Positions 5,670-60,580 of a DNA stretch of 64,000 bases are shown piece by piece. Origin of the DNA: a virus (lineage: Duplodnaviria > Caudoviricetes); the IMG/VR virus record IMGVR_UViG_3300036766_002286; one strand, written 5' to 3'. A program made the translations under genes and the position numbers. The stretch's first letter is position 1; the number at the start of each line of letters is the position of its first letter. The notes below the pieces were generated by a model. It was not told where the DNA came from, did not search any database, and worked only from the letters and a program-made list of their open reading frames with translations.

Positions 5670-5776
5670 TGTTCTCTAGAATTTGGTATTTAAAGTATAT
5701 TTATCAAGTGATTATCCTTGACAGTATGCTCAGCCCCAATAGTATAGGATATAATTATAAGTATCAAAAGGAATTT

Positions 5777-6046: not shown

Positions 6047-6108
6047 AATTTTTCATTTGTACTATCGAACAGCGCCGCAAGAGTATATCTTATACATAGG
6101 AGTTTATA

Positions 6109-6435
6109 ATGAAAAAATGGTACAAAGATGAGCTGAAACAGAACATAGGCATACCAGCGTCCATACAATTTTTGGCATGGCTTAATGACGATTGCAATAA
6201 GACCCAACGAGATTTATGTACAATAAAGGTAGCAAGATTTCTTGTTGGTGTGTATATTGATGATGGTCCTCATCCCTATCGTTACCTAGATGCTGGCATA
6301 AATCCTACAGTAGAACTTCCGGTTTCATTATTATGGGCTCGTTTAGCCAAAATCTCACCACCACTTACTTTTGTATCAAGACCTAATAAGAAAGACTATC
6401 CACCAGATAGTAAAATACTGTCCTCTAGACAGTAA
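6109..6435 (+). CDS. Hypothetical protein
   Basis: AGGAG SD, 108 aa ORF. Confidence 0.6.
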   Translation: MKKWYKDELKQNIGIPASIQFLAWLNDDCNKTQRDLCTIKVARFLVGVYIDDGPHPYRYLDAGINPTVELPVSLLWARLAKISPPLTFVSRPNKKDYPPDSKILSSRQ

Positions 6436-9060: not shown

Positions 9061-9197
9061 ACTATAATTGTGGCTACACGCCTTCGCCACACATTCCACA
9101 ATATTACTATATTAATAAGGCTTTAGCCACTTTAACCTTATTATTAAGGTTTTTGTCTATTTATAATAATATGTGTGCGACAAACCTATGACTAATT

Positions 9198-12100
9198 TTA
9201 TCGTCTAGAATCTATAAAAGAGTGTGATGAAAATCCATAGTTTATTAGTCTATGCATTTCTGTCTTTGTGGTGCACTTCTGACCACCTTTTTCTAACACA
9301 CAAGTTCTAGTGATATTTGTAGTCAAGGTTTCTATCACCGTAATGTTTGTAATTGTAATATTTCTAGGAACTGCTGTAGTCGTAGTAGTACTATTCTCTA
9401 CAACTGTTGTAGTAGTACTAGATGGAGTACTTACCGGCAATTCTAAGGTGACTCTAGGAGATACTGCAGATACAACACCCTCTCCCACCATATTGACAGC
9501 CCGTACCCTAAATTGATATGTTTTTCCACCTTTTAGATCTGCCAGAGTTACTCTAGGAACAGATGTTAAACTGTTCGCAAAAGTTGTCCAAGACCGTCCG
9601 TTATTTGTAGTGAATTCTACCAAATATACAATAATAGGTGCCCCACCCGTATTTTCAGGAGCTGACCATTTCAAAAATACTTTATTATTTTTTATAGTAA
9701 TTGTTATAGATGTCGGAGCATCTGGCACTGCTGGTGCTATTGTTGTTGTGGTAACTGGTGGCATAGTTGTAGTAGCAGGAATTGTTGTAGTAGTGGTGGT
9801 AGCTGGTGTTGTAGTTGTAGGAGCTGCTGTAGTAGTTGTAGTTACTCCAGGTGTAACATTCGAAGATGTAGCAGATACTGCTCCAAATCCTAACGCATTT
9901 TGTGCACTCACTCTAAATTGATGTACAGTTCCATTAGTAAGTCCAGTTACAGTTGCTCCAGTTGATGCGGACACTCCATCTGTAAAAGTTGTCCAAGATG
10001 TTCCAGAGTTTGTAGTGTACTCTACCAAGTAATCAGTAATTGCAGATCCACCCGTGTTCGGTGCAGACCATGTCAATGTAGCGGTTGTATTACCAGCTGT
10101 TCCACTAACCGTACCAACTCTTGCAGGTTCCGTAGTAACATTCACAATTCGTCCAGCACCAACATCTACAGCTAGCAGTAAATTACCCATACTTTCTTTG
10201 CTACTTCCAATTACTATTGTATTTTCATAACCAAGTCTTCCGACAGATCCAGCGCCCCAACATTTTATTTTACCTCCATTTAATAGAGCACAAGCATGGG
10301 CACCCGCAGCTACAACCGCTGAGACAGTACGCCCTGCACCAAAGTTTATTGCTAGTAAATTGTCTCCCATCTCGTTGGCATCATCACCTATTGAGTCAGC
10401 ACTACCCTGCCCAAGTTGTCCATTAGAACTAATACCCCAGCATTTTAGCGTTGTATTATCCAGAACTCCGCAAACAAAACCAGTCCCAGCAACTACAGCA
10501 GTTGCCGTACGTCCGGAACCCAAATTTACTGCTGGTAGATTATCACCCATTTCATTACTACCATCTCCACGATTACTAGTATCACCTTGCCCAAGTCGGC
10601 CGCTGGTTCCCGCTCCCCAACATTTCACAGTGTTATTATCTAATAATGCACATACAATATTATCTCCAGCGCTAATCTTTTGTGCGGTACGTCCAGTTCC
10701 TAGACTTACTGCAGATAAGTTATCACCCATCTCATTGGCGCCGTCTCCACGCGTTGCGGTATCACCCAAACCTAGCTCACCAGATCCATTAGATCCCCAA
10801 CATTTCACACTAGCATTATCTAAAAGTGCACAAACTTGTCCATTACCAGCAGTAATAGATGTAGCTGTGCGCCCACTACCTAAATTCACAGCAGGCAAAC
10901 TATCACCCATCTCTCCGGAGGCATCTCCACGGTTATCAGTGTCTCCTAAACCAAGGGAACCAACAGTATTTGCACCCCAGCACTTTACTGTAGCATTATC
11001 TAATATTGCACACGTAAAACCAGAACCAAGTGCTATAGCAGTAGCTGTACGCCCAGTTCCTAAATCTACTACAGGTAAGTTATCTCCCATTTCATTAGCA
11101 CCGTCTCCGCGCGTTGTGGTATCACCATAACCAAGCCTGCCCTGAGCCCCGTTCCCCCAACATTTTACTGTAGCATTGTCTAATATAGCACACGAATGCG
11201 CAGACCCCGCTACAACAATACTTGCTGTACGCCCAGTTCCTAAATCAACTGCTGGCAGATTATCTCCCATTTCAGATGTGGCATCGCCTCGATTATTAGT
11301 ATCTCCATAACCAAGTTGTCCATTACTATTAGATCCCCAACATTTTACAGCACTATTATCTAAAATAACACACGTGGCTGTTGCTTGTGAAGCCATGTTA
11401 CTACTTATAGCAGGCACTGTTCGACTACTGCCCAAGCTTACTTCAGCTAAATTATCACCCATAGCATTTAAGCTTTTTCCTCTATCTGTAATGTCTCCAT
11501 ATCCTAGTAGTCCATCGGAATTACCTCCCCAACATTTTATGGTAGAGTTATCTAATATCACACAGGTCTGTCCGCCTTCACCATTACCATTTCCAGCACT
11601 AAGTGTTTTAGCTGTTCGCCCCGATCCTAAGTCTACAACTGCTAAGTTGTCTCCCATTTCATTAGCACCGTCTCCCCTATCATTAACATCATTATAACCA
11701 AGATATCCTAAATTATTTGCTCCCCAACATTTCACAGTATCATTATCTAATATCGCACAGATCTGTCCAGCGCCGCCCGCACTCAATACTTTTGCAGTTC
11801 GTCCAGTGCCCAAGTCTATAGCAGGAAGATTATCTCCCATCTCACTTGTATTATCACCACGATTATTAGTATCTCCTAAACCAAGTTTTCCTTGTGAATT
11901 GCTGCCCCAGCATTTAGAAGTATTATTATCTAAAATAGCACAACTAACAAGAGCACCGGTACTAATAGTTCTAGCAGTTCGCCCGGTTCCTAAGTTAACC
12001 GCTAGTAAGTTGTCTCCCATTTCATTAGCACCGTCTCCACGTGATGTAGTGTCTTCATAACCCAAACGTCCTAGTGCTCCATTCCCCCAACATTTTACTG

Positions 12101-12860
12101 TATCATTATCTAACAAGGCACAAGTGTGATTTTGGCCACCAGTACTAATTATTTTAGCTGTACGTCCAGTTCCCAAGTCAACTACTGGTAAGCTATCTCC
12201 CATCTCTCCGGCCCCATCACCGCGTGCAGCTACATCTCCCAATCCAAGCTGTCCAAAAGTATTAGACCCCCAACATTTCACAGTATCATTATCTAATAAG
12301 GCGCATGTAAAATTGGTTCCAGCACTGACCCTTTTGGCTGTACGCCCAGTTCCCAAATTAACAGCTAGTAAGCTATCTCCCATCTCTCCGGCCCCATCAC
12401 CGCGCCAGGTTACATCTCCATAACCAAGTTGTCCTTCCGTATTACGTCCCCAACATTTCACTGTGTTATTATCAAGTATCACACAAGTGTGTGCCGATCC
12501 AGCACTGATCATTTTGGCTGTGCGCCCAGTTCCTAAGTCAACTGTTGGTAAGTTATCTCCCATCTCATTTATATTATCACCACGTATAATAAGATCCCCG
12601 TAGCCTAATTGTCCGGAAGAATTACGTCCCCAACATTTCACTGTGTTATTATCAAGTATCACACAAGTATGCGATCCACCGGCTGATATGTAATATCCTA
12701 AACTTATTGCTTGCGTACCGAGTCCGTTCGCATCACTAATGACTGCTTCACCAGGCTCAGCTTGAACGCTATTATATGACACTAAACTTGGCAGTATTAA
12801 AAGCGCACAAACTACCAGCAATCCCATAGCTTGTTTGAAGGTTTTCGTAGTTACACTCAT
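9198..12860 (-). CDS. Large secreted RCC1/BLIP-II-like repeat protein with two Fn3 domains
   Basis: About 14 repeats of CWGxNxxGQLGxGDxxxRGDxxxEMGDNLPxVDLG; Fn3 motifs; Thr-rich linkers; signal peptide. Confidence 0.92.
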   Translation of the reverse strand: MSVTTKTFKQAMGLLVVCALLILPSLVSYNSVQAEPGEAVISDANGLGTQAISLGYYISAGGSHTCVILDNNTVKCWGRNSSGQLGYGDLIIRGDNINEMGDNLPTVDLGTGRTAKMISAGSAHTCVILDNNTVKCWGRNTEGQLGYGDVTWRGDGAGEMGDSLLAVNLGTGRTAKRVSAGTNFTCALLDNDTVKCWGSNTFGQLGLGDVAARGDGAGEMGDSLPVVDLGTGRTAKIISTGGQNHTCALLDNDTVKCWGNGALGRLGYEDTTSRGDGANEMGDNLLAVNLGTGRTARTISTGALVSCAILDNNTSKCWGSNSQGKLGLGDTNNRGDNTSEMGDNLPAIDLGTGRTAKVLSAGGAGQICAILDNDTVKCWGANNLGYLGYNDVNDRGDGANEMGDNLAVVDLGSGRTAKTLSAGNGNGEGGQTCVILDNSTIKCWGGNSDGLLGYGDITDRGKSLNAMGDNLAEVSLGSSRTVPAISSNMASQATATCVILDNSAVKCWGSNSNGQLGYGDTNNRGDATSEMGDNLPAVDLGTGRTASIVVAGSAHSCAILDNATVKCWGNGAQGRLGYGDTTTRGDGANEMGDNLPVVDLGTGRTATAIALGSGFTCAILDNATVKCWGANTVGSLGLGDTDNRGDASGEMGDSLPAVNLGSGRTATSITAGNGQVCALLDNASVKCWGSNGSGELGLGDTATRGDGANEMGDNLSAVSLGTGRTAQKISAGDNIVCALLDNNTVKCWGAGTSGRLGQGDTSNRGDGSNEMGDNLPAVNLGSGRTATAVVAGTGFVCGVLDNTTLKCWGISSNGQLGQGSADSIGDDANEMGDNLLAINFGAGRTVSAVVAAGAHACALLNGGKIKCWGAGSVGRLGYENTIVIGSSKESMGNLLLAVDVGAGRIVNVTTEPARVGTVSGTAGNTTATLTWSAPNTGGSAITDYLVEYTTNSGTSWTTFTDGVSASTGATVTGLTNGTVHQFRVSAQNALGFGAVSATSSNVTPGVTTTTTAAPTTTTPATTTTTTIPATTTMPPVTTTTIAPAVPDAPTSITITIKNNKVFLKWSAPENTGGAPIIVYLVEFTTNNGRSWTTFANSLTSVPRVTLADLKGGKTYQFRVRAVNMVGEGVVSAVSPRVTLELPVSTPSSTTTTVVENSTTTTTAVPRNITITNITVIETLTTNITRTCVLEKGGQKCTTKTEMHRLINYGFSSHSFIDSRR

Positions 12861-13976: not shown

Positions 13977-15842
13977 ATGCCTACAGAAAATAACACAACA
14001 CCGCAAGTAAAACTAGGTCGAGTGTATTTACCTACTACCCCAGGTACTCCAGTCGGACGTTTTGAATTCGTAGTTGAACGCAATGACGGCAACTCTGTAG
14101 AAGTAGGTATGCCCGTAGCAGCCGATACAACAGAAGGTACTGTTGTTGGTACTATTGTAGACATGCGTACTGTGGGTTCTGATCACGATCCTATTACAGC
14201 TGATCTCGCATCTGATGGCAGATGTGCTGATTTACCAGAAGTTGTCGTAGCCCAAGTTCAAGTCTTTCACTCTAAATTACTTCGTCCAGTTAGAGCAGGT
14301 ATAGTTAGAGCTGCAACCAAAGATGAGATGTTACTTGCTACCGGTTATGATCGCATGGACTGGCCTATTCCAGCAGGTGTTGTTCCACTAGCCGACGGCA
14401 CAACTGCTCGTATTTGTTTTGATGGCACTTCTCTTCTTGGCCCGGAAGCGGCTCACTTAAATGTAGGAGGCTTAAGTGGTCAGGCCGCTAAAACATCTTA
14501 TATTGGAATGCTTCTAAGATCTGCTATCCATTCTGGTGGTCCACAGCATCGAGTGGCCTCCTTAGTATTTAATGTTAAAGGTGAAGACTTGATTTGGTTG
14601 GATGAAAAACCTACGTCTGGTTATGAGCTCACCTCAGAAGACTTAGATATGTATAAATCATTAGGTATTCCAGCTACCCCTTTCGAAGATGTCACAGTCT
14701 ATGCCCCATCTCTTCCAGCTGGTTCAGACGCTACAAGGTGCCCAAGACAAGATGCTTTACCGTTAGGCTGGGACCTAGCCATGGTTTGGCGTTATTTGAA
14801 ATATTTTATTAACACAAGTTTTTATGATGACGAAAAACTAACTTCATTTTTATATGAATTTGGAGCTGAATGTCTTAATAATCCAGATCACACTAAGCGT
14901 GTAGATACTTTTGATAAGCTGGATGCTTGGTTTAAAGGAATTTTAGAGCGGCCACTAGAAGAACATGAAAAAGAAAGTCCTATTGTTTGGCGGGCCCATC
15001 ACAGAGCAACCGTCTGGCGTATTCGTCGTATGTTATCTGGCGCAGTACTGGCCGGTTCCCAAGGTTTAGTTGTTCATGGTAAAGCAACGAACGGCACTGA
15101 CATTCCAGATTCTAACTGGCATCATGGTCAAGTTATTGTTGTAGACATCGCAGGCCTGTCTACAAATGTGCAGTCAGCTGTTATTGCACGCACTATTGAA
15201 AGACTTCTAAAAAGTGCCGCCGACGGAGAACTTGGTGTAGATCACTTGGTTGTTGTCGCAGACGAGCTTAATGCATTTGCTCCATCTCAGGGAGCTGAAA
15301 TGTCTAACGTTAAAAAAGTTCTCCAAAAGGTCTCAACTCAAGGTCGTTATGCTGGTATTTCTCTTTGGGGTGCTGGCCAAAAATTAAGTAAGATAGATGA
15401 AATGATACGCGATAACGCAGCCACCAGAGCACTCGGTATCACTTCTGATGGCGAGCTCGCTTCTGGCATTTATGGCTCTATGTCATCTGGTCTAGTAGAA
15501 CGTATTGCAACTTTACCTAAAGGATATATGGCATTATCACATTATTCTTTTAGAAGCACGTTAATCGTACGCTTTCCCAGACCTGCCTGGCGTACAGGTA
15601 AATCTCGCACTACTGGTGGTACAAAACTTAAAATCACTAGTGTTTTAGATTTATCTCCTCGTTCACTTGAGCGCCTCAGTGAAGGTAATTCGCCTGAAAT
15701 TGTCGATAGCATAATTTCTAGTGCAGGTTCTCAACAAGAAGCTTTAGAGAAGTTACAAAAAGCCCGTATTCCAGATATGAAAAAAGTCGCTTTGCACGAA
15801 CCTTCAACGTACGATCCAGAAAATCCCTACGATTTTGATTAA
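13977..15842 (+). CDS. herA: HerA-like ATPase/helicase
   Basis: N-terminal barrel; HLNVGGLSGQAAKTSY (variant Walker A), FNVKGEDL, VVVADELNAFAP (Walker B), QGRYAGISLWGAGQ. Confidence 0.85.
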   Translation: MPTENNTTPQVKLGRVYLPTTPGTPVGRFEFVVERNDGNSVEVGMPVAADTTEGTVVGTIVDMRTVGSDHDPITADLASDGRCADLPEVVVAQVQVFHSKLLRPVRAGIVRAATKDEMLLATGYDRMDWPIPAGVVPLADGTTARICFDGTSLLGPEAAHLNVGGLSGQAAKTSYIGMLLRSAIHSGGPQHRVASLVFNVKGEDLIWLDEKPTSGYELTSEDLDMYKSLGIPATPFEDVTVYAPSLPAGSDATRCPRQDALPLGWDLAMVWRYLKYFINTSFYDDEKLTSFLYEFGAECLNNPDHTKRVDTFDKLDAWFKGILERPLEEHEKESPIVWRAHHRATVWRIRRMLSGAVLAGSQGLVVHGKATNGTDIPDSNWHHGQVIVVDIAGLSTNVQSAVIARTIERLLKSAADGELGVDHLVVVADELNAFAPSQGAEMSNVKKVLQKVSTQGRYAGISLWGAGQKLSKIDEMIRDNAATRALGITSDGELASGIYGSMSSGLVERIATLPKGYMALSHYSFRSTLIVRFPRPAWRTGKSRTTGGTKLKITSVLDLSPRSLERLSEGNSPEIVDSIISSAGSQQEALEKLQKARIPDMKKVALHEPSTYDPENPYDFD

Positions 15843-21024: not shown

Positions 21025-21765
21025 TTAGAATCGCTCGGGATTGTAACCTTTCACGCCTTCTAAGACAGCATCTGTAAATATAGTTTTAGTTAAATTAGCT
21101 CCACGCATATCCACTCCAGTTAAATTAGCGCCTGTAAAGTTAGCTTCTTTCAGGTCTGCTTCATATAGATCCGCTTCACTCAAGTCAATTCCTGTAAAGT
21201 CTGCTCTGTGTAAATCTGCATTTCTAAGATTAGTTTTTTTAAAGTTAGCACCTTGTAATTTAGCTTCCCCTAATTTAATACCAGAAAGTTCTGCATTCTC
21301 TAGATTGGCCTCACGCAAGTCAACGTCGCACATATTTGCATTATGCAAACAAGCCGATCGCAAGTCTGCTTTATATAAAATTGCTGCAGTCATGTCAGAT
21401 TTTTGTGAGTTCAAGCCAAAACACTCAGTATTTGTCATATTAGCAAATCTTAGAGTAGCTCCATTCATACGGGCCCGAATCAAGCATGCACCTGTCAGGT
21501 CAGTTGAACTAAGATTAATATCTCCAAGCCACGCCTCTTGCAAATTAGCACCCTGCAAATGAGATTCTGATAGGTCATACTTATTTTTATCTACCAAAAT
21601 ATATTCAGCTAAAAATAGTCCTCTAAAATCAACTTCATCTAAAGTCACGCCCCGCCATGATTCCCCACGAGTTAAGGTAACTTTACCCCATCTTTTATGC
21701 TTGCATACAATAGTATTATTTCCTTTTGATTTCCATAATTGTACCATAAAAATTCTCCTTTTCAT
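21025..21765 (-). CDS. Pentapeptide repeat protein
   Basis: A(N/D)L repeats; GESW N-cap. Confidence 0.92.
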   Translation of the reverse strand: MKRRIFMVQLWKSKGNNTIVCKHKRWGKVTLTRGESWRGVTLDEVDFRGLFLAEYILVDKNKYDLSESHLQGANLQEAWLGDINLSSTDLTGACLIRARMNGATLRFANMTNTECFGLNSQKSDMTAAILYKADLRSACLHNANMCDVDLREANLENAELSGIKLGEAKLQGANFKKTNLRNADLHRADFTGIDLSEADLYEADLKEANFTGANLTGVDMRGANLTKTIFTDAVLEGVKGYNPERF

Positions 21766-27737: not shown

Positions 27738-28388
27738 ATGAAACCCAATGTAAAATATACTGACCGCTATGGTAATTCCCAAGAATTACAATGGAACAAG
27801 TCATGGGAAGGTATAGATTTGGCCGGAGCTGACTTAAGAAACGTTAATTTGCGTGGTGCCGACCTGTCTGGCGCAAATTTACGTGAGGCCAATTTGCAGC
27901 ATGCGAACCTATACAGTGCTCGTTTACAAAAGACTGATCTGCAGCATGCTAATCTATCTGATACCGACCTGCGGAGTGTTTATATGCACAGTGCTGATCT
28001 AAAAGGCGCTAATTTAAGCGGAGCAAACACCGCCGGTGCTAATTTGGCTTTTGCTAACTTGCAAGGTGTTACTTTACATCCCAACAGTTTAAATGGCGTT
28101 ACCCTAGGTGGAGCTAATTTGACTAATATTAATCTATCTGGTATTGATTTGCGTTACACTAATTTTTTTGGTGCTTGTCTGGCTGGCGCTGATTTATCTA
28201 ACACCGAGTTGCTCGCCACTGACCTGACTAACGCTGATTTGACTGACGCTAATCTTTACGGTGCTAATTTAGAAGGCGCTAATCTGGGCAATGCCATACT
28301 ATCTATCAAACAACAAACCGAGTGCATCGGGTATAATCTAGCTTTACGGATAGACAAGTCACAGGTAAATTGCGGTTGTGATGAATAG
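27738..28388 (+). CDS. Pentapeptide repeat protein
   Basis: VKYTDRYGNSQELQW N-cap, ADL/ANL repeats. Confidence 0.93.
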   Translation: MKPNVKYTDRYGNSQELQWNKSWEGIDLAGADLRNVNLRGADLSGANLREANLQHANLYSARLQKTDLQHANLSDTDLRSVYMHSADLKGANLSGANTAGANLAFANLQGVTLHPNSLNGVTLGGANLTNINLSGIDLRYTNFFGACLAGADLSNTELLATDLTNADLTDANLYGANLEGANLGNAILSIKQQTECIGYNLALRIDKSQVNCGCDE

Positions 28389-44175: not shown

Positions 44176-44345
44176 GTCGCCAATAAGGTCCTCTACCGTT
44201 CCTTTTGAGTGTTGTTTAGTGACACTTTAGGAGCTCGATCTTGCGACCGAACAGTTCTTGTTTTATACAACCATTGCTGGTTGCTTTAAGATTGACGCTT
44301 CATCGGCCACAACGTTTATATCTGACATTAAAGATACTTTAGTTT
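44176..44345 (-). ncRNA. Putative omegaRNA of the first TnpB
   Basis: TCGGTC-GCAA-GATCGA hairpin; scaffold ends AACGG; guide would start TAGAGGACCTTATTGG; 5' limit approximate. Confidence 0.55.
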
Positions 44346-45707
44346 TATGTAGGCCTCCGCGTCCAGTCCCCGAGCTACTCTCGGAGGTATTGCATAAACC
44401 CAACTTTGCTAGGTTTATTGCTGCGTTCAGATCTCTATCGATGATAAGCCCGCAGTTATTACATTTGAACTCTCGTTCAGAGAGAAGTAGTTTGGCTTTC
44501 ACTACCTCACACCGTGAACAAGTCTTACTTGACGGATACCACTGGTCGGCTTGTATTAAAACAGATCCGTACCAGGCAGTCTTATATTTTAATTGCCGTA
44601 TAAATTCCCCCCAGCCGGCATCATATATTGCTTTGCTTAAATGATGATTCTGGGCCATACCAAGAATGCCCAATGTCTCAACTACGATAACGTCACAAGT
44701 TTTGGCTAGAAATGTGGTGCTTTTGTTAATGACATCCCGGCGGACGTTTGCGATATTGCGCTGAACTCTGGTTACTCTGCTGTTAGCTTTTTTCCAGCGT
44801 GCGGAAGGTTCCACTCCGGGAGCTGGACCTATCTTGCGGGCGGCCTTGCGTTGTGCTCGGCACAGTGACTGTTCTGATTGTTTAGTATGTTTAGGATTAG
44901 GAACGTCTAGTATAGTATTCCCATTACAGTCGGCTACCTTATATAGGGTTGTCACACCGAGGTCAACCCCAACTATTTTCACAGGGAGACGCGTCGGGGT
45001 GATCGCCGCTTCTACTTCTACCGTGAAGCTGACAAACCATTTCCCGCCCGAGCGCGAAAGAGTTGCACTCAAAATACGGGCAGTAGCTGCCTCAATTCTC
45101 CGAGCCAGCTTACGGGTACTTTCGTGAGTGCGGATCTGACCTATAACTGGAAGAAGTACATGGTGACGATCGACAGTCACCCCAATGTTCCCTGTCGTGA
45201 ACCGAACACTCTCATGTTGGCCGCGTTTATGGTACTTAGGAAACCCGACTGATTTACCTTTACGTTTTCCTGTTAAAGAATCGCGATGGTTCGATAACCC
45301 CAAAGATAATCGTTTAGTCCCATCCGAGTAGGCTTCTTTAGAGTTCTCTCTCCACCATGGAGCAACAATGTCTTTCTTTGCGTTCCAATGCTTTCTTAAA
45401 TCATAATGTGAGCTTGGAAAATAGGGTGTCAGTTCATTTTCCGCCACACCGGAGGCGATCTCAGCTTTTCTTTGATCGCGAGCGGCTTTCACACAGCTGA
45501 GAAGATAATTGTAAGCATATCTGGAGGCTCCCACATGAGAATGAAATGCTCGCTCCTGAGTAGGGGATGGATCTAGTGCGAACTTGTAAGCTCGATGGAT
45601 TACACTCATAAAGGTTTAACTTGTTCAAGTGCCAGCTTTGTCAGCCCAATCAGATGTAACATATACCTATTATCGTTACCAGATGTCATTAAATGACACT
45701 TGAGGCC
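44196..45707 (-). mobile_element. Non-autonomous IS607-like element (tnpB only)
   Basis: Right end ...GGAACGG; GG at proposed left end; AAGTGTCA near both ends; no tnpA. Confidence 0.6.
44263..45609 (-). CDS. tnpB: TnpB RNA-guided nuclease, RuvC triad intact
   Basis: AYKFALDP, VGVDLG, IVVETL, PSSKTCSRC, CxxC, DRDLNAAIN. Confidence 0.95.
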   Translation of the reverse strand: MSVIHRAYKFALDPSPTQERAFHSHVGASRYAYNYLLSCVKAARDQRKAEIASGVAENELTPYFPSSHYDLRKHWNAKKDIVAPWWRENSKEAYSDGTKRLSLGLSNHRDSLTGKRKGKSVGFPKYHKRGQHESVRFTTGNIGVTVDRHHVLLPVIGQIRTHESTRKLARRIEAATARILSATLSRSGGKWFVSFTVEVEAAITPTRLPVKIVGVDLGVTTLYKVADCNGNTILDVPNPKHTKQSEQSLCRAQRKAARKIGPAPGVEPSARWKKANSRVTRVQRNIANVRRDVINKSTTFLAKTCDVIVVETLGILGMAQNHHLSKAIYDAGWGEFIRQLKYKTAWYGSVLIQADQWYPSSKTCSRCEVVKAKLLLSEREFKCNNCGLIIDRDLNAAINLAKLGLCNTSESSSGTGRGGLHKTKVSLMSDINVVADEASILKQPAMVV

Positions 45708-45746: not shown

Positions 45747-46860
45747 TTGAACCTCTCTACGGACTTCTCCGAGAGATTTCGGAGAATTATCCGACATGGC
45801 ATAACTCTTTTATATTCGAGGCCAGCTCCTGGCCCAATATTAGAGTGTTCACAGCCGCGTTAATATCGCGATCGTGTTTGGTTCCACAACCACTACACTT
45901 CCAATGTCTTACTGTCATCATGTCCCAACCTGTAGGGCCTGTTAAGGCCTCACAGTTTGAGCATGTACGAGTGGAATTCTTAGAAGGAACTTCAATATAA
46001 CGCGTACCGAAGGCTCGGCTCTTGTATGCGAGTTGTCTTTGAAGCTCCCCGTGACTGGCTGCAGCCACTGACTTTCCTAGCTTTTTGCTATACCTCCAAT
46101 ATTATCTTTAGAGAATGCTATAAAAGAATTTTCTTGTACTAGACGTAGTGACTGTTTATGGTTACGGTCTTTACACTGGTTTTTGGTTCGTTCTTGTATT
46201 CTGGCCGCCAGTTTACGATTTTTACCGCGTTGAGCTTGGCCTAGACGTTTTTGGGATTGTTGTGCTTCTTTAGGATGAGGAATTTTCTCACCAGTTGATA
46301 AGGTTAGTAAATCTATAAATCCGGGATCTATACCAATTTTACCAAAAGCTTTACGCTCAATAGGTGCCCGGTCCGCATCAATAAAAAGACACAAATACCA
46401 TCCAGAGGCACGTTTTAATATACGACCGCATTTAATTTTACCTGTGGGAAGAGTTTGTTTATGAAAACGTACTTGACCTATACTCGGCAATTTAATGCAG
46501 TTACCTTCAGGCGCACTAATAGGGTCTGGAAATGGTATAGAGTTTAGCTTACGGCGGTTGCCTTTCAGTTTAGGTTTACCACCGAGTTTTTTGAAACACT
46601 TCTGCCAGGAGGTATAAACAGTATCTAATATGCCTTGAAGGGTGTGACTTGGAATACCAATTTTCTTTCCGTGGCCAGCGAGAAGATTTATGAAATCGTA
46701 GCGCGTATAATAAATACCATATTTAGCATCTTGCTCGATCTTACGAATAGCCCAGTTATAAACTCCAGTAAGAGAAAATAACCAGTCGTTCATTTCTTTT
46801 TCTTGTTTCGGTGTAAGTCTGAGTTTAACCTGGTGCTGGATCATATGATTGTTACGTACA
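45747..46860 (-). mobile_element. Non-autonomous IS200/IS605-like element (tnpB only); left end approximate
   Basis: Subterminal hairpin CTCTCGGA-GAAG-TCCGTAGAGAG followed by GTTCAA right end. Confidence 0.65.
45787..46844 (-). CDS. tnpB: TnpB, split by a single-base deletion near 46082
   Basis: KIGIDPG, restored GIAKKLGKSVAAASHG, STRTCSNC, WKCSGC, HDRDINAAVN. Confidence 0.88.
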
Positions 46861-48953: not shown

Positions 48954-48981
48954 ATATCAGAACACTGCTAGAATACCTTAG

Positions 48982-49055
48982 TGGCGGAGGTAGGATTTGA
49001 ACCTACGACCTCCGGGTTATGAGCCCGACGAGCTGCCAAACTGCTCCACTCCGCA
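48982..49055 (-). tRNA. tRNA-Met(CAT), initiator type; CCA not encoded
   Basis: TGCGGAGTGGAGCAGTTTGGCAGCTCGTCGGGCTCATAACCCGGAGGTCGTAGGTTCAAATCCTACCTCCGCCA; 1:72 mismatch; three G-C pairs in anticodon stem. Confidence 0.95.
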
Positions 49056-51245: not shown

Positions 51246-51938
51246 ATGAAAGAAAGAATAAAGTATATCGATGGCCAGGGCAACCCTCAAGAGCTAATAG
51301 GCGACCACCCCCAAACATCTATTAGTCTATCTAATGTCGCACTCGCCGGCGCAGATTTATCTGGCGCACAGTTGCCAGGAGTTAGCGCATATAACATGGA
51401 TTTGACGCGTATAAATCTATCCGGAGCAAATCTAGCTAATGCGGACTTTTCTATGTCGAAACTCTCTTACGCCAACTTATCCGGAGCCGATTTGTCTTTT
51501 GCAGATCTTAGCGGGGCTGATTTGACAAACGCTATTCTAACCAACACTAATTTGCGGTTTGCAATTTTAACAGACACAGACCTGTCTGGAGCTATCCTAT
51601 CCGGAGCTGTTTTAGCAGACGTATCTGCTCTCCGTGTTAACTTACAAGACACCTATCTAAAACATGCTGATCTATCTCGCGCTTTTCTGCAGGAAGCAGA
51701 GCTATCAAATGCTGATTTAACTGACGCAAATTTGACTAAAGCAGATCTCAGTGAAGCTAATTTATGTAAGGCCAACTTAACTAACGCTAATCTAACTGAC
51801 GCTGATTTAGAATTAGCGGCCCTGGTTCACACTAATTTAACTGGTGCTAATATAGAGGGCGCAAGTATAGAGCACAGTTTGCGTCAATCGACAATAATGC
51901 CAGACGGCACAACACAAGGTAATACTTATACAAAGTAA
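51246..51938 (+). CDS. Pentapeptide repeat protein
   Basis: IKYID..GNPQEL cap; ADL repeats; TIMPDG end. Confidence 0.93.
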   Translation: MKERIKYIDGQGNPQELIGDHPQTSISLSNVALAGADLSGAQLPGVSAYNMDLTRINLSGANLANADFSMSKLSYANLSGADLSFADLSGADLTNAILTNTNLRFAILTDTDLSGAILSGAVLADVSALRVNLQDTYLKHADLSRAFLQEAELSNADLTDANLTKADLSEANLCKANLTNANLTDADLELAALVHTNLTGANIEGASIEHSLRQSTIMPDGTTQGNTYTK

Positions 51939-51969: not shown

Positions 51970-52674
51970 ATGAGACCAAATGTAAAATACATGGATCGCA
52001 ACAGTGATCCACAAGAGCTGCAATGGGGAGAGTCCTGGATAAATATTGATCTCACCCGAGCAGACTTAACCGGCGCCGATTTATCTCTTGGGGAACTGGG
52101 AGGAGTACGCATATCCGGAGCCAACCTTACTAACGCTAATCTGTCTGGAGCATATCTTGAGGGAGTAGAGTTGATTCGAGCTAGTCTTTACGGTGCAGAC
52201 TTATCTAATACAAATATTATGAATGGGCAACTAGCTTATGCAAATTTATCTAATGCAAACTTGACAAAAGCTTACTTAGGCGGCGCCAACTTGAGCTATG
52301 CAAATTTTTCTCATGCAAATTTATCTAATACAGATTTTAAAGAAGCTAAGTTAATTGAAACAAACCTAGAAGCAGTAGATCTCTCTAATGCTGATTTATC
52401 GCATGCAGACTTAACTGGAGCAAATTTAACAAAAGCACGTATGATTAATACAGACCTAACCTGGTCAAATCTAACAGGATCTAATTTAACTATGGCAACT
52501 CTAACTCATGTAAATCTAGCTAATTCAGATTTAACTTGTGCGATCCTAGCTGGTACATTATTGGATAACTGTAATTTAAGTGACACAATCACAACTTATG
52601 TTGATTTGTTTAATATAAATTTAAGTACATGTACGCTCGTCGGCGCTAATGGGTATTATCAGGTATGGAAGTAA
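51970..52674 (+). CDS. Pentapeptide repeat protein
   Basis: VKYMD...PQELQWGESW cap. Confidence 0.93.
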   Translation: MRPNVKYMDRNSDPQELQWGESWINIDLTRADLTGADLSLGELGGVRISGANLTNANLSGAYLEGVELIRASLYGADLSNTNIMNGQLAYANLSNANLTKAYLGGANLSYANFSHANLSNTDFKEAKLIETNLEAVDLSNADLSHADLTGANLTKARMINTDLTWSNLTGSNLTMATLTHVNLANSDLTCAILAGTLLDNCNLSDTITTYVDLFNINLSTCTLVGANGYYQVWK

Positions 52675-52757: not shown

Positions 52758-53468
52758 ATGAGACATGAACCTATAAATAGAAGAGAAGTAATTGGCATTC
52801 TCGGCGGTATTGGTCCAGCTGCAACAGCTCATATATTTTCGCAGTTAATAAAAACTTTTCAAACAAACGGCGCTGTTTTAGATAACGATTTCCCCGCAAT
52901 TCTTGTTCACAGTCTCAATATACCAGGCACCCAGCCAACTGGTGTACATAGTCACCCAGATCTTGTACGTTCATTACAAGCTGCCGTAAGTCAGCTTATT
53001 ACCTCTGGAGCGACTATTTTGGGAGTTGCTTGTAATAGTTTGCATGGAAAATTTGCAAACATTGGTATTCCATCTAACATAAAACTTTTAGACATGATAC
53101 AGCTCACAGTTGATGCGGCTAGAGATCGGTCGTGGCGAAGAGTTGGAATCTGTGCGTCGCGATCGACTCGGTCCGAGCAGTTGTTTAATAATGCTTTTTC
53201 TGAATATGAAATTACTACTATTGATCTTCCAGAAGAATTGCAATGCGCACTCGACTCAGCAATTTTATCCGTGATGGGCAATAAGGATATTACGAATGCC
53301 AGCAATATTTTAAAAACTACTATAGATACTCTTTTGCACATGGGAGCAGACGGGGTTATTGTAGGGTGTACCGAACTATCTATGATCGCACCTGTGGATT
53401 ATAGGGTGCTTGACTCAGCAGAACTTCTTGTTGCAGCCCTACATTCAAATTCTAGTATAATCAAATGA
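52758..53468 (+). CDS. Aspartate/glutamate racemase family protein
   Basis: GILGGIGPAAT, ACNSLH, GCTELS (both catalytic Cys). Confidence 0.9.
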   Translation: MRHEPINRREVIGILGGIGPAATAHIFSQLIKTFQTNGAVLDNDFPAILVHSLNIPGTQPTGVHSHPDLVRSLQAAVSQLITSGATILGVACNSLHGKFANIGIPSNIKLLDMIQLTVDAARDRSWRRVGICASRSTRSEQLFNNAFSEYEITTIDLPEELQCALDSAILSVMGNKDITNASNILKTTIDTLLHMGADGVIVGCTELSMIAPVDYRVLDSAELLVAALHSNSSIIK

Positions 53469-53475
53469 GGTAACT

Positions 53476-54447
53476 ATGCGCTTTATACCATTCACGCACT
53501 CTGTCCAGCTGCACCAAGAGCTTTCACATGTTCTCAAAAATATACGCGCTCAGCGTAACTTTAATGCCGAAAATGTCCTTATAGAAAAATGTGAGAGGCT
53601 TCAAGCCTACTTGTCTGCTTTTAATTTGCGTGCCCTAGTTGTTGGAGTTTCTGGTGGTATTGATTCTGCAGTTAGTTTAGGTATTGCATCCAACCTTCTT
53701 GAAAATGGACTTATAGACCGAGTTGTACCTGTACTTCTTCCTTTATCTGGAAATCTGGCTGCAACCGGTCAATTGGAGGCAACTACTCGCGGTATCCAAG
53801 TTTGTGCTAAATTCGCACTTAAACCCGTCATTATTGAACTTGACCCTACTTTTGAAACAACCTGTTCAGCAGTAGAGTCCGCACTACAATTATCAGGAAA
53901 CCCCTGGGCTCGCGGCCAGCTCACCTCTTATATACGCACGCCTGCTTTATATTACACTGCAAGTATTTTATGGGCCAATAAATTACCTGCCGCCGTCCTT
54001 GGCACCACCAATAGAGATGAGGGTGCTTACCTCGGATTTTTTGGTAAAGCCTCTGACGGTATGGTTGATATTCAGATTTTGAGCGATCTTCATAAATCAG
54101 AAGTATACGCTCTGGCTAAACAGCTAGATATTCCAGAAACAATAATTAATGCTATACCTACTGGTGATATGTACGATGGACGTATCGATGAAGAGGTTTT
54201 TGGTGCTCCATACGATTTTGTTGAATTGTTTTTAGCTATGCGTTGTATGACACCCATCAATCAATCTGTTATAATCAGCTCACTTGGCTCTCTTGCTCGC
54301 GAACAGTTTGATAAGTATTACTCAGCGCTTCAAGGTCTTCATAATTACAATGCACATAAATATCTCGTAGGCTCCCCCGCTATCCATTTAGATGTACTTG
54401 CCGGCCACGTCCCCGGTGGTTGGCGTTATGCGGTGTGGTATGCTTAA
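53476..54447 (+). CDS. nadE: NH3-dependent NAD+ synthetase
   Basis: GVSGGIDSAV, GTTNRDE, GFFGKASDG, DLHKSEV, PTGDM; no glutaminase domain. Confidence 0.88.
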   Translation: MRFIPFTHSVQLHQELSHVLKNIRAQRNFNAENVLIEKCERLQAYLSAFNLRALVVGVSGGIDSAVSLGIASNLLENGLIDRVVPVLLPLSGNLAATGQLEATTRGIQVCAKFALKPVIIELDPTFETTCSAVESALQLSGNPWARGQLTSYIRTPALYYTASILWANKLPAAVLGTTNRDEGAYLGFFGKASDGMVDIQILSDLHKSEVYALAKQLDIPETIINAIPTGDMYDGRIDEEVFGAPYDFVELFLAMRCMTPINQSVIISSLGSLAREQFDKYYSALQGLHNYNAHKYLVGSPAIHLDVLAGHVPGGWRYAVWYA

Positions 54448-55186
54448 TAACATTCCAGAAGTTTTGATTAAGCACCCAGTCCCCGTTCAAGAATTTGATA
54501 TAGATACAGCAAATTCTATTATTCAGCCCACATCTACTATTTTACCAGGCACAACTGATGTTTTACTTATTAAAGGTCTTCTTGCTATAAACGAGGTGCA
54601 AGCTCTACTTTCAGCTGTCCCAGATTCTAAATTTGTAACAGCTGACTCTCACGGTGTTGCTGGAAACAACCAGAAAACAGGTTCCTATAGAGCTTCACTT
54701 TGGGCTCCAAATTTTGCTAGTATTTTATTTGAACGTATTAGACCTTTTATCTCAAATCCCCTAATTGTGAACCCTTTCACACCAACAGACGCTCATGACA
54801 CTATCGCTTGGTCACCCGTTAGCATAAATCCGCTACTTAGATTAATTCACTATAAATCAAGCGGAACATTAATCCCTCACTACGATGGTCCGGTTTTTTT
54901 CCAAGACGGTACTCGTACTTTATACTCAGTTATAATAGGCCTCACCTCTGATTCATCTGGAGCCACCAGGTTTCTTTCAGACCCAAAAAGAGATTTGCCT
55001 TTTACTCGCCGCAGTCACGGCGATCAAGACAGGATACCAGAACCAAATGATGTCGATGCAATCATTGTCCTAGAGCCAACCGACGCCTTAATATTTCCTC
55101 ATCGTATTTTACACGACACAGCTCCTGTAAATCTAAACAAAACTATTTTACGTACAGATGTCATTTATACGCGAATTTCATTATGA
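54440..55186 (+). CDS. 2OG-Fe(II) oxygenase (prolyl-4-hydroxylase-like)
   Basis: HYD, ILHD, KTILRTDV. Confidence 0.88.
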   Translation: MLNNIPEVLIKHPVPVQEFDIDTANSIIQPTSTILPGTTDVLLIKGLLAINEVQALLSAVPDSKFVTADSHGVAGNNQKTGSYRASLWAPNFASILFERIRPFISNPLIVNPFTPTDAHDTIAWSPVSINPLLRLIHYKSSGTLIPHYDGPVFFQDGTRTLYSVIIGLTSDSSGATRFLSDPKRDLPFTRRSHGDQDRIPEPNDVDAIIVLEPTDALIFPHRILHDTAPVNLNKTILRTDVIYTRISL

Positions 55187-56877
55187 GTATAAATACGACT
55201 ACCAGTTCCCAAGCCGATATTGATACTTATCTAGCCTTAGACCCAATGTATAGTGCATGTGCTAAACATTACGGATACAATATGCTCGGCCCTGCCGGTT
55301 TTATTACTCATCCAGACCTACACGCTAGAGCCACAATCACTGATCATGCTTGGCTAAGCACTCCATTATTTAAGGTATCTGCTAATTTCGACACATCTTC
55401 ATCCCGAACTAAAAAGCAAGCCGTACTTTTAACAACTGGAGCATTTTCTCCTCTTCATACAGGACACATTGAAATGATGGATTGTGCCAAAGTCGCTCTG
55501 GAAGCCTCAGACATAGAGGTTGTGGGTGGTTTTATTTCTCCTTCTCATGATGCCTATGTAACAAGAAAGGCAAAAGGTGACGCACAAATGCATGCAGAAA
55601 TCAGAGTTGCCCTATGTGAAGCAGCTGTTGCTTCGTCCAGTTGGCTAGCAATAGATACCTGGGAAGCTCGCTATGTTCCAGACGAATGTAATTTTACTGA
55701 TGTTTTTCGCCACCTTAAGGGTATTTTAGATCATAATTTCGGTAAAGACGCAATTGAAGTTTGGTATGTATTTGGTAGTGATAATATCATGTTCGCAACC
55801 GTTTTCAAAGAGTCTGGTAATGCTGTTGTTGTACACAGAGGAGGCACAGAAAATCCAAGCAACACTCTGAAAGCATTGAATATGGATAGCACCAGAGTTA
55901 TCGTATCAGACATTACTACTACAGCATCTTCCACCGAAATTCGTCGCGGTGATTTTACATTACTCCCATCCCCTATACGAGACACTTATCCGCGTTTTGT
56001 TGATCCAGCCCCCTTTCCATCTGGTGTTATAATACTTCGCGATGATCTCACATATGCAACCAAACACTGGGCAACATCTTCAGTATTTGATAAAGCTCTT
56101 CAAACATTTTCCACAAATGTACAAACCGCACTTATTACTGCTTACGATAGTAATTTTTCAATTGTGCTAGCACAAGTTGCAGACCAACTAACCGCGGCTT
56201 CATTCGCACTTTTTGATACGAAAACTATCTCTTTAGATGTGTATTTTAAAGGCACCGCACATTTTGAGATATCTAGAAGTTTTGGCTGTTCAGACGGTCA
56301 AGTGCGCACGTCCGGCATCATAGCTCGTCCAGGCTCAGCTTCTATTGCCGAGCAAATTTCACAAATTGCTCCCGGAGATTATTGTATTGTTGATGATGAT
56401 ATTGCCTCTGGAACCACTATTAAACAGTGCATTGAGATGCTGCCAGTTCACGTAAAGCACACAGGACAATATGCTATGGTAGAACATATCGGACTTCTTC
56501 GATCAAAAATTATTGATGTTTGTGACCTCAGAGACTTTCTTCTCGGCACCTTACATGGAGGCCTAGCAGTAATTCTCCCCAGCGGGTTTCACGGCCGTGC
56601 TCCTTATATGCTCCCGTACGTTTCATTAGTTTCTCGTGCTAGCATTCCTCCCACAAAACATCTACAATGCGCTCTCGATTTATGGATTGCAAACGAAGAA
56701 TTTTTTCGCACCATACCGGTCACTTTGAAGCTTATCGATACTCCACAGTATACTCGCGATTTACTCACTTCTGCTGGCTTTACGCAAGATATCACACTTG
56801 CTGATATATGTGCCTATCATATTAAAATACTTAGTCACAGTGTTTCCGCCCAAACCAAGTTTGCCCCGCGCCAGTAA
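55183..56877 (+). CDS. NMN/NaMN adenylyltransferase (eukaryote-like) fused to type I phosphoribosyltransferase-like domain
   Basis: GAFSPLHTGH, VVGGFISPSHDAYV, SSWLAIDTWEA, FGSD, SSTEIR; C-terminal IVDDDIASGTTI PRPP-binding motif. Confidence 0.82.
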   Translation: MSINTTTSSQADIDTYLALDPMYSACAKHYGYNMLGPAGFITHPDLHARATITDHAWLSTPLFKVSANFDTSSSRTKKQAVLLTTGAFSPLHTGHIEMMDCAKVALEASDIEVVGGFISPSHDAYVTRKAKGDAQMHAEIRVALCEAAVASSSWLAIDTWEARYVPDECNFTDVFRHLKGILDHNFGKDAIEVWYVFGSDNIMFATVFKESGNAVVVHRGGTENPSNTLKALNMDSTRVIVSDITTTASSTEIRRGDFTLLPSPIRDTYPRFVDPAPFPSGVIILRDDLTYATKHWATSSVFDKALQTFSTNVQTALITAYDSNFSIVLAQVADQLTAASFALFDTKTISLDVYFKGTAHFEISRSFGCSDGQVRTSGIIARPGSASIAEQISQIAPGDYCIVDDDIASGTTIKQCIEMLPVHVKHTGQYAMVEHIGLLRSKIIDVCDLRDFLLGTLHGGLAVILPSGFHGRAPYMLPYVSLVSRASIPPTKHLQCALDLWIANEEFFRTIPVTLKLIDTPQYTRDLLTSAGFTQDITLADICAYHIKILSHSVSAQTKFAPRQ

Positions 56878-56900: not shown

Positions 56901-57665
56901 CTATTGTACTATTTTGCTGTCATAGTATGTGCCGTCTTGACCGCAGAGTTCTATATATCTATGATAAGCACCTTGGTTGTTTGTAGTAACGTTCAATCTA
57001 TTAGACCCGCTCACGTCGCATCCCAACATCGTCGCTTCCGTTAGGTCCGCCCCTCTAAAATCTACATCTCTTAGATCAGACTTACTAAAGTCCGCTCCAG
57101 CTAATACACATCCAACCATACTAGCTCCTCTTAAATTGCTTCCTCTAATATTAGAAACAAGCATATAAGCACCGTCCAAGTTAGCATATTGTAAATTAAC
57201 ATCGTCTAAACAAGCAGCTATCAAGCCAGCACAGAATTTATCAATTCCAGCCATATTTATTTCACTCATATCAGCGCCCGTAAAATTTGCTCCATTTGCG
57301 CAAGCTCTAGTCAAGTTTGCGCACTTTAGATTACTTTTTGGAAACTGGGCTTCTTCTAGTATAGCTCCAGATAAATTAGCACGCCTTAAGTTAGCGCTTG
57401 CAAAAATAGCTTTTCCCATTGCAGATCTAACCATAGTGGCAGAAGCCAAATCAGCAAAACTAAAATCTGCACCCGTAAGCTTAGCTTCGTCTAAATGTGT
57501 TCCAATTAGAATAGCGCCTTTCAAATTCGCTCCATTCAAATTCGCACCACGTAAATCTAAGCCGGACAAGTCTATATTGGTTAGATCCCGCCCGCTCATC
57601 TCAATTCCACAAGCCACGTTTTCCAGCACCTCTTGTCGGCTTATTTTCGCACTCATCGAAGTCAC
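56901..57665 (-). CDS. Pentapeptide repeat protein
   Basis: ISRQEVL cap; repeats. Confidence 0.93.
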   Translation of the reverse strand: MTSMSAKISRQEVLENVACGIEMSGRDLTNIDLSGLDLRGANLNGANLKGAILIGTHLDEAKLTGADFSFADLASATMVRSAMGKAIFASANLRRANLSGAILEEAQFPKSNLKCANLTRACANGANFTGADMSEINMAGIDKFCAGLIAACLDDVNLQYANLDGAYMLVSNIRGSNLRGASMVGCVLAGADFSKSDLRDVDFRGADLTEATMLGCDVSGSNRLNVTTNNQGAYHRYIELCGQDGTYYDSKIVQ

Positions 57666-59875: not shown

Positions 59876-60580
59876 TCAAATTATCTCTCCCATTGGCCCT
59901 AACTGGATCGTCTCCAGGCCTGTGCCACCCAAGGTTGCCTGTGTAAAGTTAGCACCGCGCATAAGATTATTTTCTGGAAGTATAGCGTAACTCAAATCAG
60001 CTCCGTAAAAGTCTGCTTCTGTTAAATTTGCGCAAGTAAAATTACAATTATTCAGTTTCGCGCCTGAAAATACAGCCCTATACAAATCTACTCCTAACAT
60101 ATTTGCATCTAGAAGATTCGCCCCAGTAAACTTCGCCCATCTCAAATCTGCACTATAAGATGAAAGTCCCGCCAGCATCGCATTACTCAGATTTGCATCC
60201 GCAAATGATGCAAATCGAGCCTCACTCCTAGTTAAATTAACAAAACTCATGTTAGCACCATTCAAGATACCACAAACCAAATTTACTCCAGCCATGTTAG
60301 CTCGAACCATAGTTGCGCATCTGAAGTTAGCCCCCTCCAGGTTAGCTCGAACCAATATCGTTTCAAATAGGTTTGCGCCTATAAAATTTGCCCCATGGCA
60401 ATTTGCAAAGCTTAAATTAGCGTAACTAAGATTTGTCTCAATCATTTGTGTATTATGGAGCTCTAAATAAGACATGTTAATATGAGACAAATCTAAACCG
60501 CTTAAATTTTTCTGCGCCATTGATTTGCCAGTTTTAATATTATCTATGACATCTTCTCGAGTTAGTTTTTTCTCCAACAT
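59876..60580 (-). CDS. Pentapeptide repeat protein
   Basis: LTREDVI cap; repeats. Confidence 0.93.
   Translation of the reverse strand: MLEKKLTREDVIDNIKTGKSMAQKNLSGLDLSHINMSYLELHNTQMIETNLSYANLSFANCHGANFIGANLFETILVRANLEGANFRCATMVRANMAGVNLVCGILNGANMSFVNLTRSEARFASFADANLSNAMLAGLSSYSADLRWAKFTGANLLDANMLGVDLYRAVFSGAKLNNCNFTCANLTEADFYGADLSYAILPENNLMRGANFTQATLGGTGLETIQLGPMGEII

Follow-up and report, generated by a model that had tools for sequence, protein, structure and literature searches.

What is made by a set of genes in which an enzyme of the nicotinamide adenine dinucleotide (NAD) synthetase type stands between a racemase and an oxygenase? The question is raised by a four-gene block (positions 52758-56877) in IMG/VR virus record IMGVR_UViG_3300036766_002286, of which a stretch of 64,000 nucleotides, referred to below as the window, was analysed. 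The window is part of a 616,293-bp replicon, has a G+C content of about 40% and holds numerous short open reading frames (ORFs). The routes of NAD synthesis are commonly regarded as completely charted, and we know of none with an oxygenase, a radical S-adenosylmethionine (SAM) enzyme or a racemase. The block is described here as one form of a module that recurs in other genomes. The reading developed below, from sequences and predicted folds, is that of an NAD-building module with an integral oxidase, and it is given an even chance of being correct.

A conserved unit of NadE', an oxidase and an NMNAT-PRTase fusion

The block consists of four ORFs on the + strand. The first (52758-53468) encodes a racemase of the Asp/Glu family of 236 aa, the second (53476-54447) a single-domain ATP pyrophosphatase of the NAD-synthetase type of 323 aa, designated NadE', and the third (54440-55186) a dioxygenase dependent on 2-oxoglutarate (2OG) and Fe(II) of 248 aa with the prolyl/lysyl-hydroxylase fold. 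The fourth (55183-56877) encodes a protein of 564 aa in which a nicotinamide mononucleotide adenylyltransferase (NMNAT) is fused to a phosphoribosyltransferase (PRTase)-like domain. The stop codon of the racemase gene (ending at 53468) is separated from the start of NadE' at 53476 by a gap of 7 nt, the ATG of the oxygenase gene at 54440 lies inside the end of the NadE' gene (stop at 54447; 8-nt overlap) and the start of the fusion gene at 55183 lies inside the end of the oxygenase gene (stop at 55186; 4-nt overlap). A preliminary description, made from the sequence of the window, had reported four tightly coupled genes with intact catalytic motifs and had put them forward as a candidate undescribed operon. 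The coordinates, the gap and both overlaps were confirmed, the genes were found to belong to a real functional unit, and a description of the module was not found in the searchable literature.

Pattern scans gave 124 loci in total, 39 of them in species-representative genomes, five on viral contigs and 80 in metagenomes, and their gene content was surveyed with tblastn and hidden Markov models. The census with hidden Markov models covered the 85 loci with enough flanking sequence, to which the counts out of 85 refer. NadE' was encoded with the oxygenase only in 49 loci, with a radical SAM enzyme only in 31, with both kinds of oxidase in one and without either in one. It was missing within the fetched flank in three, two of them viral, and one viral contig among these three has NadE' and the oxygenase about 8 kb further along the same genome. 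NadE' is accompanied by an oxidase of one kind or the other in 81 of the 85 loci, and the two are fused in many. The pairing of the oxygenase with this clade of NadE, seen in the window by the preliminary description, is found elsewhere as well, the two co-occurring or being fused in 50 of the 85 loci.

The fusions take several forms. In many loci a single ORF, with a product of about 570-620 aa, was called for NadE' and the oxygenase, the latter at the C-terminal end; six genome loci have one protein of 1114-1591 aa that combines all four domains. Over the related loci as a whole, common lengths of the fused products are about 590 aa and 1100-1400 aa. In addition, fusions of the oxygenase with the NMNAT and PRTase-like domains exist that have no NadE (P0233). 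On account of the synteny and of these several architectures, NadE', the oxidase and the NMNAT-PRTase protein are regarded as one unit, which is the conserved core of the module. A chance gene neighbourhood was considered and was ruled out by the synteny and the fusions, since more than 80 independent loci show these genes either side by side or joined, far beyond what chance would give.

An exhaustive profile search with the oxygenase, at E <= 1e-30, returned 306 representative clusters. Of the 150 best-scoring ones, 82 are stand-alone proteins, 32 have the size of a NadE'-oxygenase fusion (320-700 aa), four that of an oxygenase-NMNAT-PRTase fusion (700-1000 aa) and 32 are of at least 1000 aa; in Pfam, the domains NAD_synthase, 2OG-FeII_Oxy_3 and CTP_transf_like are found within one chain. 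Because of these size classes and Pfam architectures of the best clusters, the oxygenase family appears to exist essentially inside the module.

The radical SAM enzymes that take the place of the oxygenase are of two types. The commoner type scored 194-214 bits against the RaSEA model TIGR01210 (cut-off 212), and its sole sequence match in the PDB is queuine lyase (6p78). The second type, of about 290 aa and found mainly in gut Clostridia, is weakly similar to MoaA, viperin and HydE. No mutual similarity was detected when the two families were compared. The oxidative step is integral to the module, in the form of either a P4H-like 2OG oxygenase or a radical SAM enzyme, and the host taxa fit an oxygen-dependent and an oxygen-independent solution of one step: the oxygenase form is found in metagenome-assembled genomes and isolates of Streptomyces, Myxococcota, Armatimonadota and Obscuribacterales, and the radical SAM form in gut Clostridia and in several lineages of the candidate phyla radiation (CPR).

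Further genes travel with the radical SAM form. A partner protein family of 230-290 aa (c12) with a DLCPGxAPK / NHxxDD pattern was found in 22 of 32 radical SAM loci and in one of 50 oxygenase-only loci (L004, L016 at 5567-6277, L018, L045, L047, L069, L082, L102 and others). It gave no Pfam, NCBIfam or PDB profile match; in a protein atlas it lies near class I SAM methyltransferases, which is taken as a lead only. Several loci from CPR genomes and metagenomes (L016:3837-4826, L045:3273-5405, L046, L082, L095 and L102) have a gene close by for a cyanophycin-synthetase-like ATP-grasp ligase, a further enzyme of amide-bond formation, which is fused to a radical SAM/SPASM domain in L045. In Clostridia a gene of the pyridoxal phosphate (PLP) decarboxylase fold lies just upstream of the second-type radical SAM gene. 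There the genes form a co-directional cluster (L069:4876-16251 and about 20 related human-gut metagenome loci) that encodes, in addition to the PLP decarboxylase-fold protein, the radical SAM enzyme, NadE' and the fusion protein, a GNAT protein, a second radical SAM enzyme, a 619-aa protein without assignment, a methyltransferase-like protein and a B12-binding radical SAM enzyme. This cluster looks like a more elaborate pathway.

The racemase scored 80.8 bits against PF01177 (cut-off 31). The nearest NCBIfam models, both below their cut-offs, are CuyB (cysteate; 129.9 bits, cut-off 190) and asp_race (aspartate; 82.8 bits, cut-off 93.1). The catalytic residues Cys92 and Cys204 are invariant among nine module-linked racemases. 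The gene is present in 14 of the 85 loci, alongside either kind of oxidase. In all 18 racemase-bearing loci it lies immediately upstream of NadE', with a gap of at most 35 nt in 17 of them and of 353 nt in L003. It is an accessory gene tied to NadE' and lies outside the conserved core. Its association with this NadE clade, part of the preliminary description, is found elsewhere as well.

The loci in genomes are spread over Streptomyces (a plasmid included), Gaiellaceae, Myxococcota, Armatimonadota, Obscuribacterales, Pseudomonadota, Clostridia and several CPR lineages; in one CPR phylum the fusion protein was found in one of 201 sampled genomes. The module is a rare, patchy and horizontally scattered gene set, of which the window carries the oxygen-dependent four-gene form. 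In a tree of the fusion protein calculated with FastTree, the oxygenase and radical SAM forms are interspersed, which implies that the oxidase has been replaced more than once. The fusion protein of the window lies on a long branch, loosely near copies from Actinomycetota and Myxococcota, and no donor was inferred from this position.

The nature of the product

NadE' is the hub of the module. It scored 107.9 bits against PF02540 and 107 bits against TIGR00552, the nadE equivalog-domain model (cut-off 63.65), and is 39-51% identical to the NadE' proteins of the 38 genome loci that have one. The P-loop motif is SGGIDS in the window, and SGGxDS and HK are invariant across the alignment. From these features NadE' is predicted to be an NAD synthetase, a PP-loop enzyme amidating nicotinate adenine dinucleotide (NaAD). 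A glutaminase domain is absent. The best solved relative is 3fiu, deposited as an NH3-dependent NAD+ synthetase (E 1.1e-18), whose lead over other NadE structures is small (70.8 versus 64.4 bits). We take 3fiu to be the Francisella tularensis enzyme that amidates nicotinate mononucleotide (NaMN), that is, a nicotinamide mononucleotide (NMN) synthetase; by analogy NadE' may act at the mononucleotide level. A nickel-pincer (LarB/C/E) pathway was considered and rejected, NadE' being far nearer to NadE than to LarE (23 bits) and the racemase not being LarA-like.

The fusion protein is conserved over its whole length in 119 full-length homologues from a large protein collection (about 25-39% identity), one of which is fused to a NadE domain. 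Its NMNAT domain (residues ~70-271; 55390-55995, + strand) is of the eukaryotic type. A profile of the family matched 9rpk in the PDB at 6.5e-31 and human NMNAT1/3 at about 1e-18; the domain matches PF01467 and scored 45.4 bits against TIGR00482, under the cut-off of 112.45, and is not an equivalog of bacterial NadD. The motifs HTGH and SSTEIR are present in the window, and HxGH and SSTxxR are invariant in the family. In many homologues about 60 further residues stand at the N-terminus and look like the beginning of a J domain (alignment columns 1-60; for example P0008, P0014 and P0048); the protein of the window does not have this extension. In about ten loci, megaphage contigs included, a family of about 200-220 aa without annotation is encoded directly downstream of the fusion gene (L098:9424-10068, L108:2538-3146, L040:10635-11297 and six or seven others); the window has no copy.

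The second part of the fusion protein (residues ~281-564; 56023-56874, + strand) was assigned from its phosphoribosyl pyrophosphate (PRPP) loop and its fold as a putative PRTase-like domain of a divergent type I, extended at the C-terminus by helices. The loop is DDDIASGTT in the window, and the PRPP-loop motif DDDIASGxT is invariant in the family. In the AlphaFold model the domain has a predicted local distance difference test score (pLDDT) of 93.1. A wide search with VIA-align gave type I PRTases (OPRT, HGPRT, APRT) in nearly all of the top rows, at Z 5-7.3, and APRT and HGPRT profiles matched weakly (E ~0.01). Foldseek gave no match at E <= 0.001 and Pfam none, PF00156 included. No match to PF04095 or to the NCBIfam PncB models was obtained for any of the four proteins.

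The genomic context connects the module to NAD. The NrtR regulator adjoins it in nine loci; in L049 the operon runs radical SAM enzyme-NadE'-fusion-PncB-glutamine-type NadE [NadE(Gln)]-NrtR, and in a Saccharibacteria locus (L033) the distance between PncB and the module is about 2 kb. In a Shapirobacteria genome of ~1.0 Mb (G002) the only PF02540 match and the only PF01467 match are those of the module, and a search of this genome gave no NadA, NadC or PncB/NadV. A Curtissbacteria genome (G004) has one weak second PF02540 match and two other PF01467 matches, and was searched without finding NadA, NadC, PncB or a second TIGR00482 match. A Collierbacteria genome (G001) encodes NadA and NadC, and the sole NMNAT-type match is that of the module. 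Because of the NrtR, PncB and NadE(Gln) neighbours and of CPR genomes with little or no recognizable NAD machinery besides the module, ordinary NAD is the favoured product.

The same context bears on the proposal of the preliminary description that a modified pyridine dinucleotide is made. For example, NadE' would attach a D-amino acid, or another amino acid, to the carboxylate of the nicotinate, and the oxygenase would hydroxylate it or tailor it in another way, to give a signal, an inhibitor or an NADase-resistant cofactor. Such a product would suit the rare and patchy distribution, with copies on a plasmid, in megaphages and on this giant replicon, and the tailoring-type genes of the anaerobic loci (GNAT, two more radical SAM enzymes, the methyltransferase-like protein and the ATP-grasp ligase). 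With canonical PncB and NadE(Gln) beside it in L049, and PncB in L033, the module seems to be more than merely redundant there, and no known PRTase for nicotinate or nicotinamide is like the PRTase domain. Against this, NrtR adjoins nine loci, the module supplies the sole NMNAT-type match in G001 and G002 and the sole NadE match in G002, NadE' and the NMNAT domain remain near the housekeeping families, and a radical SAM substitute of the C-N-cleaving RaSEA/QueL group fits the removal of a group better than hydroxylation. A modified dinucleotide is accordingly judged unlikely, ordinary NAD being favoured by the regulator, the salvage genes beside the module and the small CPR genomes.

The other proposal of the preliminary description was an NAD-reconstitution route countering NADase defences. 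On this replicon the module would rebuild NAD against host NADases (SIR2, TIR, RES) in the manner of the NARP pathways of phages, a role that is compatible with the chemistry favoured here. Three giant viral records (391-436 kb) hold NadE', the oxygenase and the fusion gene within about 10 kb; terminal repeats are present in two of the three and a terminase match in all, weak in G009. Homologues are found on a Streptomyces plasmid, the module itself lies on a 616-kb replicon, and the phage NAD-reconstitution pathways NARP1-3 are established. Most copies, however, are cellular and several stand under NrtR; PADLOC gave only a marginal match to a generic 2OG model (E 2.2e-4); tblastn of the fusion protein against deposited phage genomes gave no match; there is no sign within the window that the replicon is a phage; and, compared with NARP1-3, a deamidated route by way of NadE takes longer and costs more. 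Of this proposal the part that concerns NAD synthesis is retained. The part that concerns NADases is argued from context, no defence or counter-defence family having been matched, and is considered improbable.

The place of the oxidase

The oxygenase of the window has no match of its own in Pfam, NCBIfam or PHROG; fused relatives scored 27.5-34.5 bits against PF13640 (cut-off 27). An AlphaFold model calculated with 25 homologues (pLDDT 90.6) is a double-stranded beta-helix that was matched by Foldseek and VIA-align to P4H, PHD2 and LH3 at Z 14-15.5. The residues H147-x-D149, H225 and R238, which correspond to the HxD...H iron triad and to the basic residue that binds the C5 carboxylate of 2OG, are invariant in 25 oxygenase sequences. 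An alternative in-frame ATG at 54392 would give a protein of 264 aa; the homologues align from 54440. MysH was the first Foldseek match and was examined as a special relative; by Z it is not specially close, and it is used below as a chemical precedent only.

For the favoured product, the pathway is predicted to run in three formal steps. The type I PRTase-like domain would couple PRPP with a pyridine base obtained by salvage, nicotinate being the likeliest, the eukaryote-type NMNAT domain would adenylylate the mononucleotide, and NadE' would convert the nicotinate carboxylate to the carboxamide. None of the formal steps that lead from nicotinate to NAD requires an oxidant, so that some further contribution is to be expected of the oxidase. 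It is placed at the amidation because it is fused or coupled to NadE' and not to the PRTase, because the racemase always abuts NadE', because NadE' has no glutaminase domain and because RaSEA and QueL, the two characterized relatives of the commoner radical SAM substitute, cut exocyclic C-N bonds with retention of the nitrogen. We tentatively suggest that the oxidase serves amidation through an amino-acid nitrogen donor, a predicted and unproven role that is drawn by analogy.

In detail, NadE' would use neither ammonia nor glutamine and would adenylate the nicotinate carboxylate of NaMN or NaAD and ligate to it an amino acid or amine as the source of nitrogen. In modules with the racemase, a D-amino acid would serve as this donor. 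The oxygenase would hydroxylate the carbon adjoining the donor nitrogen, and the adduct would collapse to the nicotinamide (NAD or NMN) and a keto acid or aldehyde; in anaerobes the N-C bond would be cut by the RaSEA/QueL-like radical SAM enzyme. Among type I PRTases, the PRTase-like domain would then be the first that acts on a pyridine base. This scheme as a whole is possible, with the balance of probability against it. In a variant, the oxidase would deaminate the amino acid and pass ammonia to NadE', standing in for the missing glutaminase domain. Other PP-loop enzymes are known that use amino-acid nucleophiles, namely ArgG (aspartate) and TilS (lysine). The PLP decarboxylase-fold gene upstream of the second radical SAM type and the ATP-grasp ligases near several copies also speak for a nitrogen donor.

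Precedents exist for the second half of the scheme. RaSEA converts preQ0-Lys to archaeosine, the lysine skeleton being removed while the nitrogen stays (PMC11298593), and QueL converts queuine to preQ1 (PMC11130926). MysH, a 2OG oxygenase, has been proposed to hydroxylate the alpha position of a glycyl group, upon which glyoxylate leaves and the amine stays (PMC10666671). The ArcS/RaSEA and MysC/MysH systems would share with the module the logic that an amino acid is ligated as a nitrogen donor and its carbon skeleton is then removed, and the commoner radical SAM substitute stands at or near the cut-off of the RaSEA model. The substrates of these systems are, in contrast, 7-deazaguanine in tRNA and mycosporines, and their ligases are unrelated to NadE; the comparison is one of analogy and not of membership. 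The suggestion of the preliminary description that NadE ligates an amino acid which the oxygenase processes fits the constant gene order racemase-NadE'-oxygenase and the replacement by radical SAM enzymes with C-N-cutting relatives, and is kept without the modified dinucleotide to which it had been tied.

The oxidase might instead act at the entry of the pathway, where it would make a precursor other than niacin into the substrate or product of the PRTase by demethylation, aromatization or oxidative decarboxylation, the racemase or PLP enzyme preparing the precursor. The unlikeness of the PRTase domain to PncB, NadC and NadV makes a different base possible, PncB coexists with the module in some loci, and the fusions represented by P0233 join the oxygenase to the NMNAT and PRTase-like domains without NadE. 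Oxygen-dependent/radical SAM pairs are also known for oxidative decarboxylation, HemF and HemN being one. Most architectures, however, have the oxidase joined to NadE' by fusion or by translational coupling, and the racemase always abuts NadE'; enzymes of the RaSEA and QueL type cleave exocyclic C-N bonds; and we could name no oxidation by which a common metabolite would yield nicotinate in one step. An entry-step oxidase is for these reasons considered improbable, and a role in amidation is preferred.

Several observations weigh against an NAD-building module in which the oxidase serves amidation. The racemase is absent from 71 of the 85 loci. The nearest folds to the oxygenase are protein prolyl and lysyl hydroxylases, MysH not being specially close, and the second radical SAM type is dissimilar to the RaSEA-like type and has no relative of known C-N lyase chemistry. 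NadE' has kept the motifs of an ordinary NadE and scores above the cut-off of the nadE model, and it may simply use ammonia; with abundant ammonia in guts and sediments, the case for an amino-acid donor is weaker. The fold scores of the PRTase-like domain are middling (Z ~7). Where PncB and glutamine-type NadE lie beside the module, a plain nicotinate-to-NAD role would be partly redundant. The sole NAD genes of a CPR genome are also no proof of essential NAD synthesis, with the module in one of 201 genomes, and many CPR organisms may make no NAD at all.

Among known systems, the Preiss-Handler pathway (PncB, NadD, NadE) has the same three formal steps, and NrtR, PncB and NadE(Gln) stand beside some copies of the module. 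It differs in that PncB is a type II enzyme, whereas the PRTase of the module is divergent and type I-like, in that the NMNAT of the module is of the eukaryotic type and fused, and in having neither oxidase nor racemase, whereas the module pairs NadE' with an oxidase and sometimes with a racemase. The Francisella NadE* + NadM route is alike in its amidating enzyme, 3fiu being the best solved relative of NadE'; it is without an oxidase, a racemase or a PRTase fusion. The phage pathways NARP1 (Adps, PRPS-like, and Namat), NARP2 (Nampt and Nmnat) and NARP3 (PnuC and a NadR-like protein) are likewise compact NAD-restoring sets of mobile genomes, and NMNAT activity is common to NARP2, NARP3 and the module. 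The module differs in running through NadE-type amidation with an oxidase and in being found mostly in cellular genomes. Searches of the four proteins with Pfam, NCBIfam and PHROGs gave no PRPS, Nampt/NAPRTase-family or PnuC match; two marginal matches to NadR models lie far under their cut-offs (15.8 bits versus 341 and 12.8 versus 201).

Setting in the window and significance

Two pentapeptide-repeat genes precede the block (51246-51938 and 51970-52674, both + strand) and one follows it (56901-57665, - strand). The module seems bracketed by them because such genes are scattered through the window, where at least six were found, the others lying at 21025-21765 (-), 27738-28388 (+) and 59876-60580 (-). 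The bracket that had been pointed out in the preliminary description was seen at no related locus and is incidental. A scan for promoters and terminators gave signals in the window no better than those of shuffled sequence.

Elsewhere in the window, an IS605-family OrfB/TnpB protein with a Cas12f-like TNB domain is encoded at 44263-45609 (-), and a shorter OrfB-like ORF of 255 aa without a TNB domain match lies nearby at 46077-46844 (-). The sole tRNA found by ARAGORN in the window is a tRNA-Met with a CAT anticodon (48981-49055, -). A protein of 1220 aa with RCC1-like repeats and fibronectin type III (FN3) domains is encoded at 9198-12860 (-) and adjoins a second FN3 protein at 8014-9099 (-); both are likely to be surface proteins. 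Ordinary metabolic genes occur amid the short ORFs, an aldehyde dehydrogenase gene (1226-2752, +) being convergent with that of a class III aminotransferase (2759-4114, -). A protein of 621 aa encoded at 13977-15842 (+) has a weak match (E 3e-5) to the region of the PHROG terminase large subunit and FtsK-like ATPases, which is insufficient for the replicon to be called a phage.

Bacteria of at least nine phyla carry the gene set, as do a plasmid and megaphages, and the repeated fusion of a NadE paralogue to an oxidase points to an unrecognized chemical step in the making or re-making of a universal cofactor. If the role in amidation is true, it would be a previously unknown way to install the amide of NAD, and a function would be assigned to a new PRTase-like domain. 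If NAD is restored by the module during NADase attack, a fourth kind of counter-defence pathway would be carried by giant mobile genomes.

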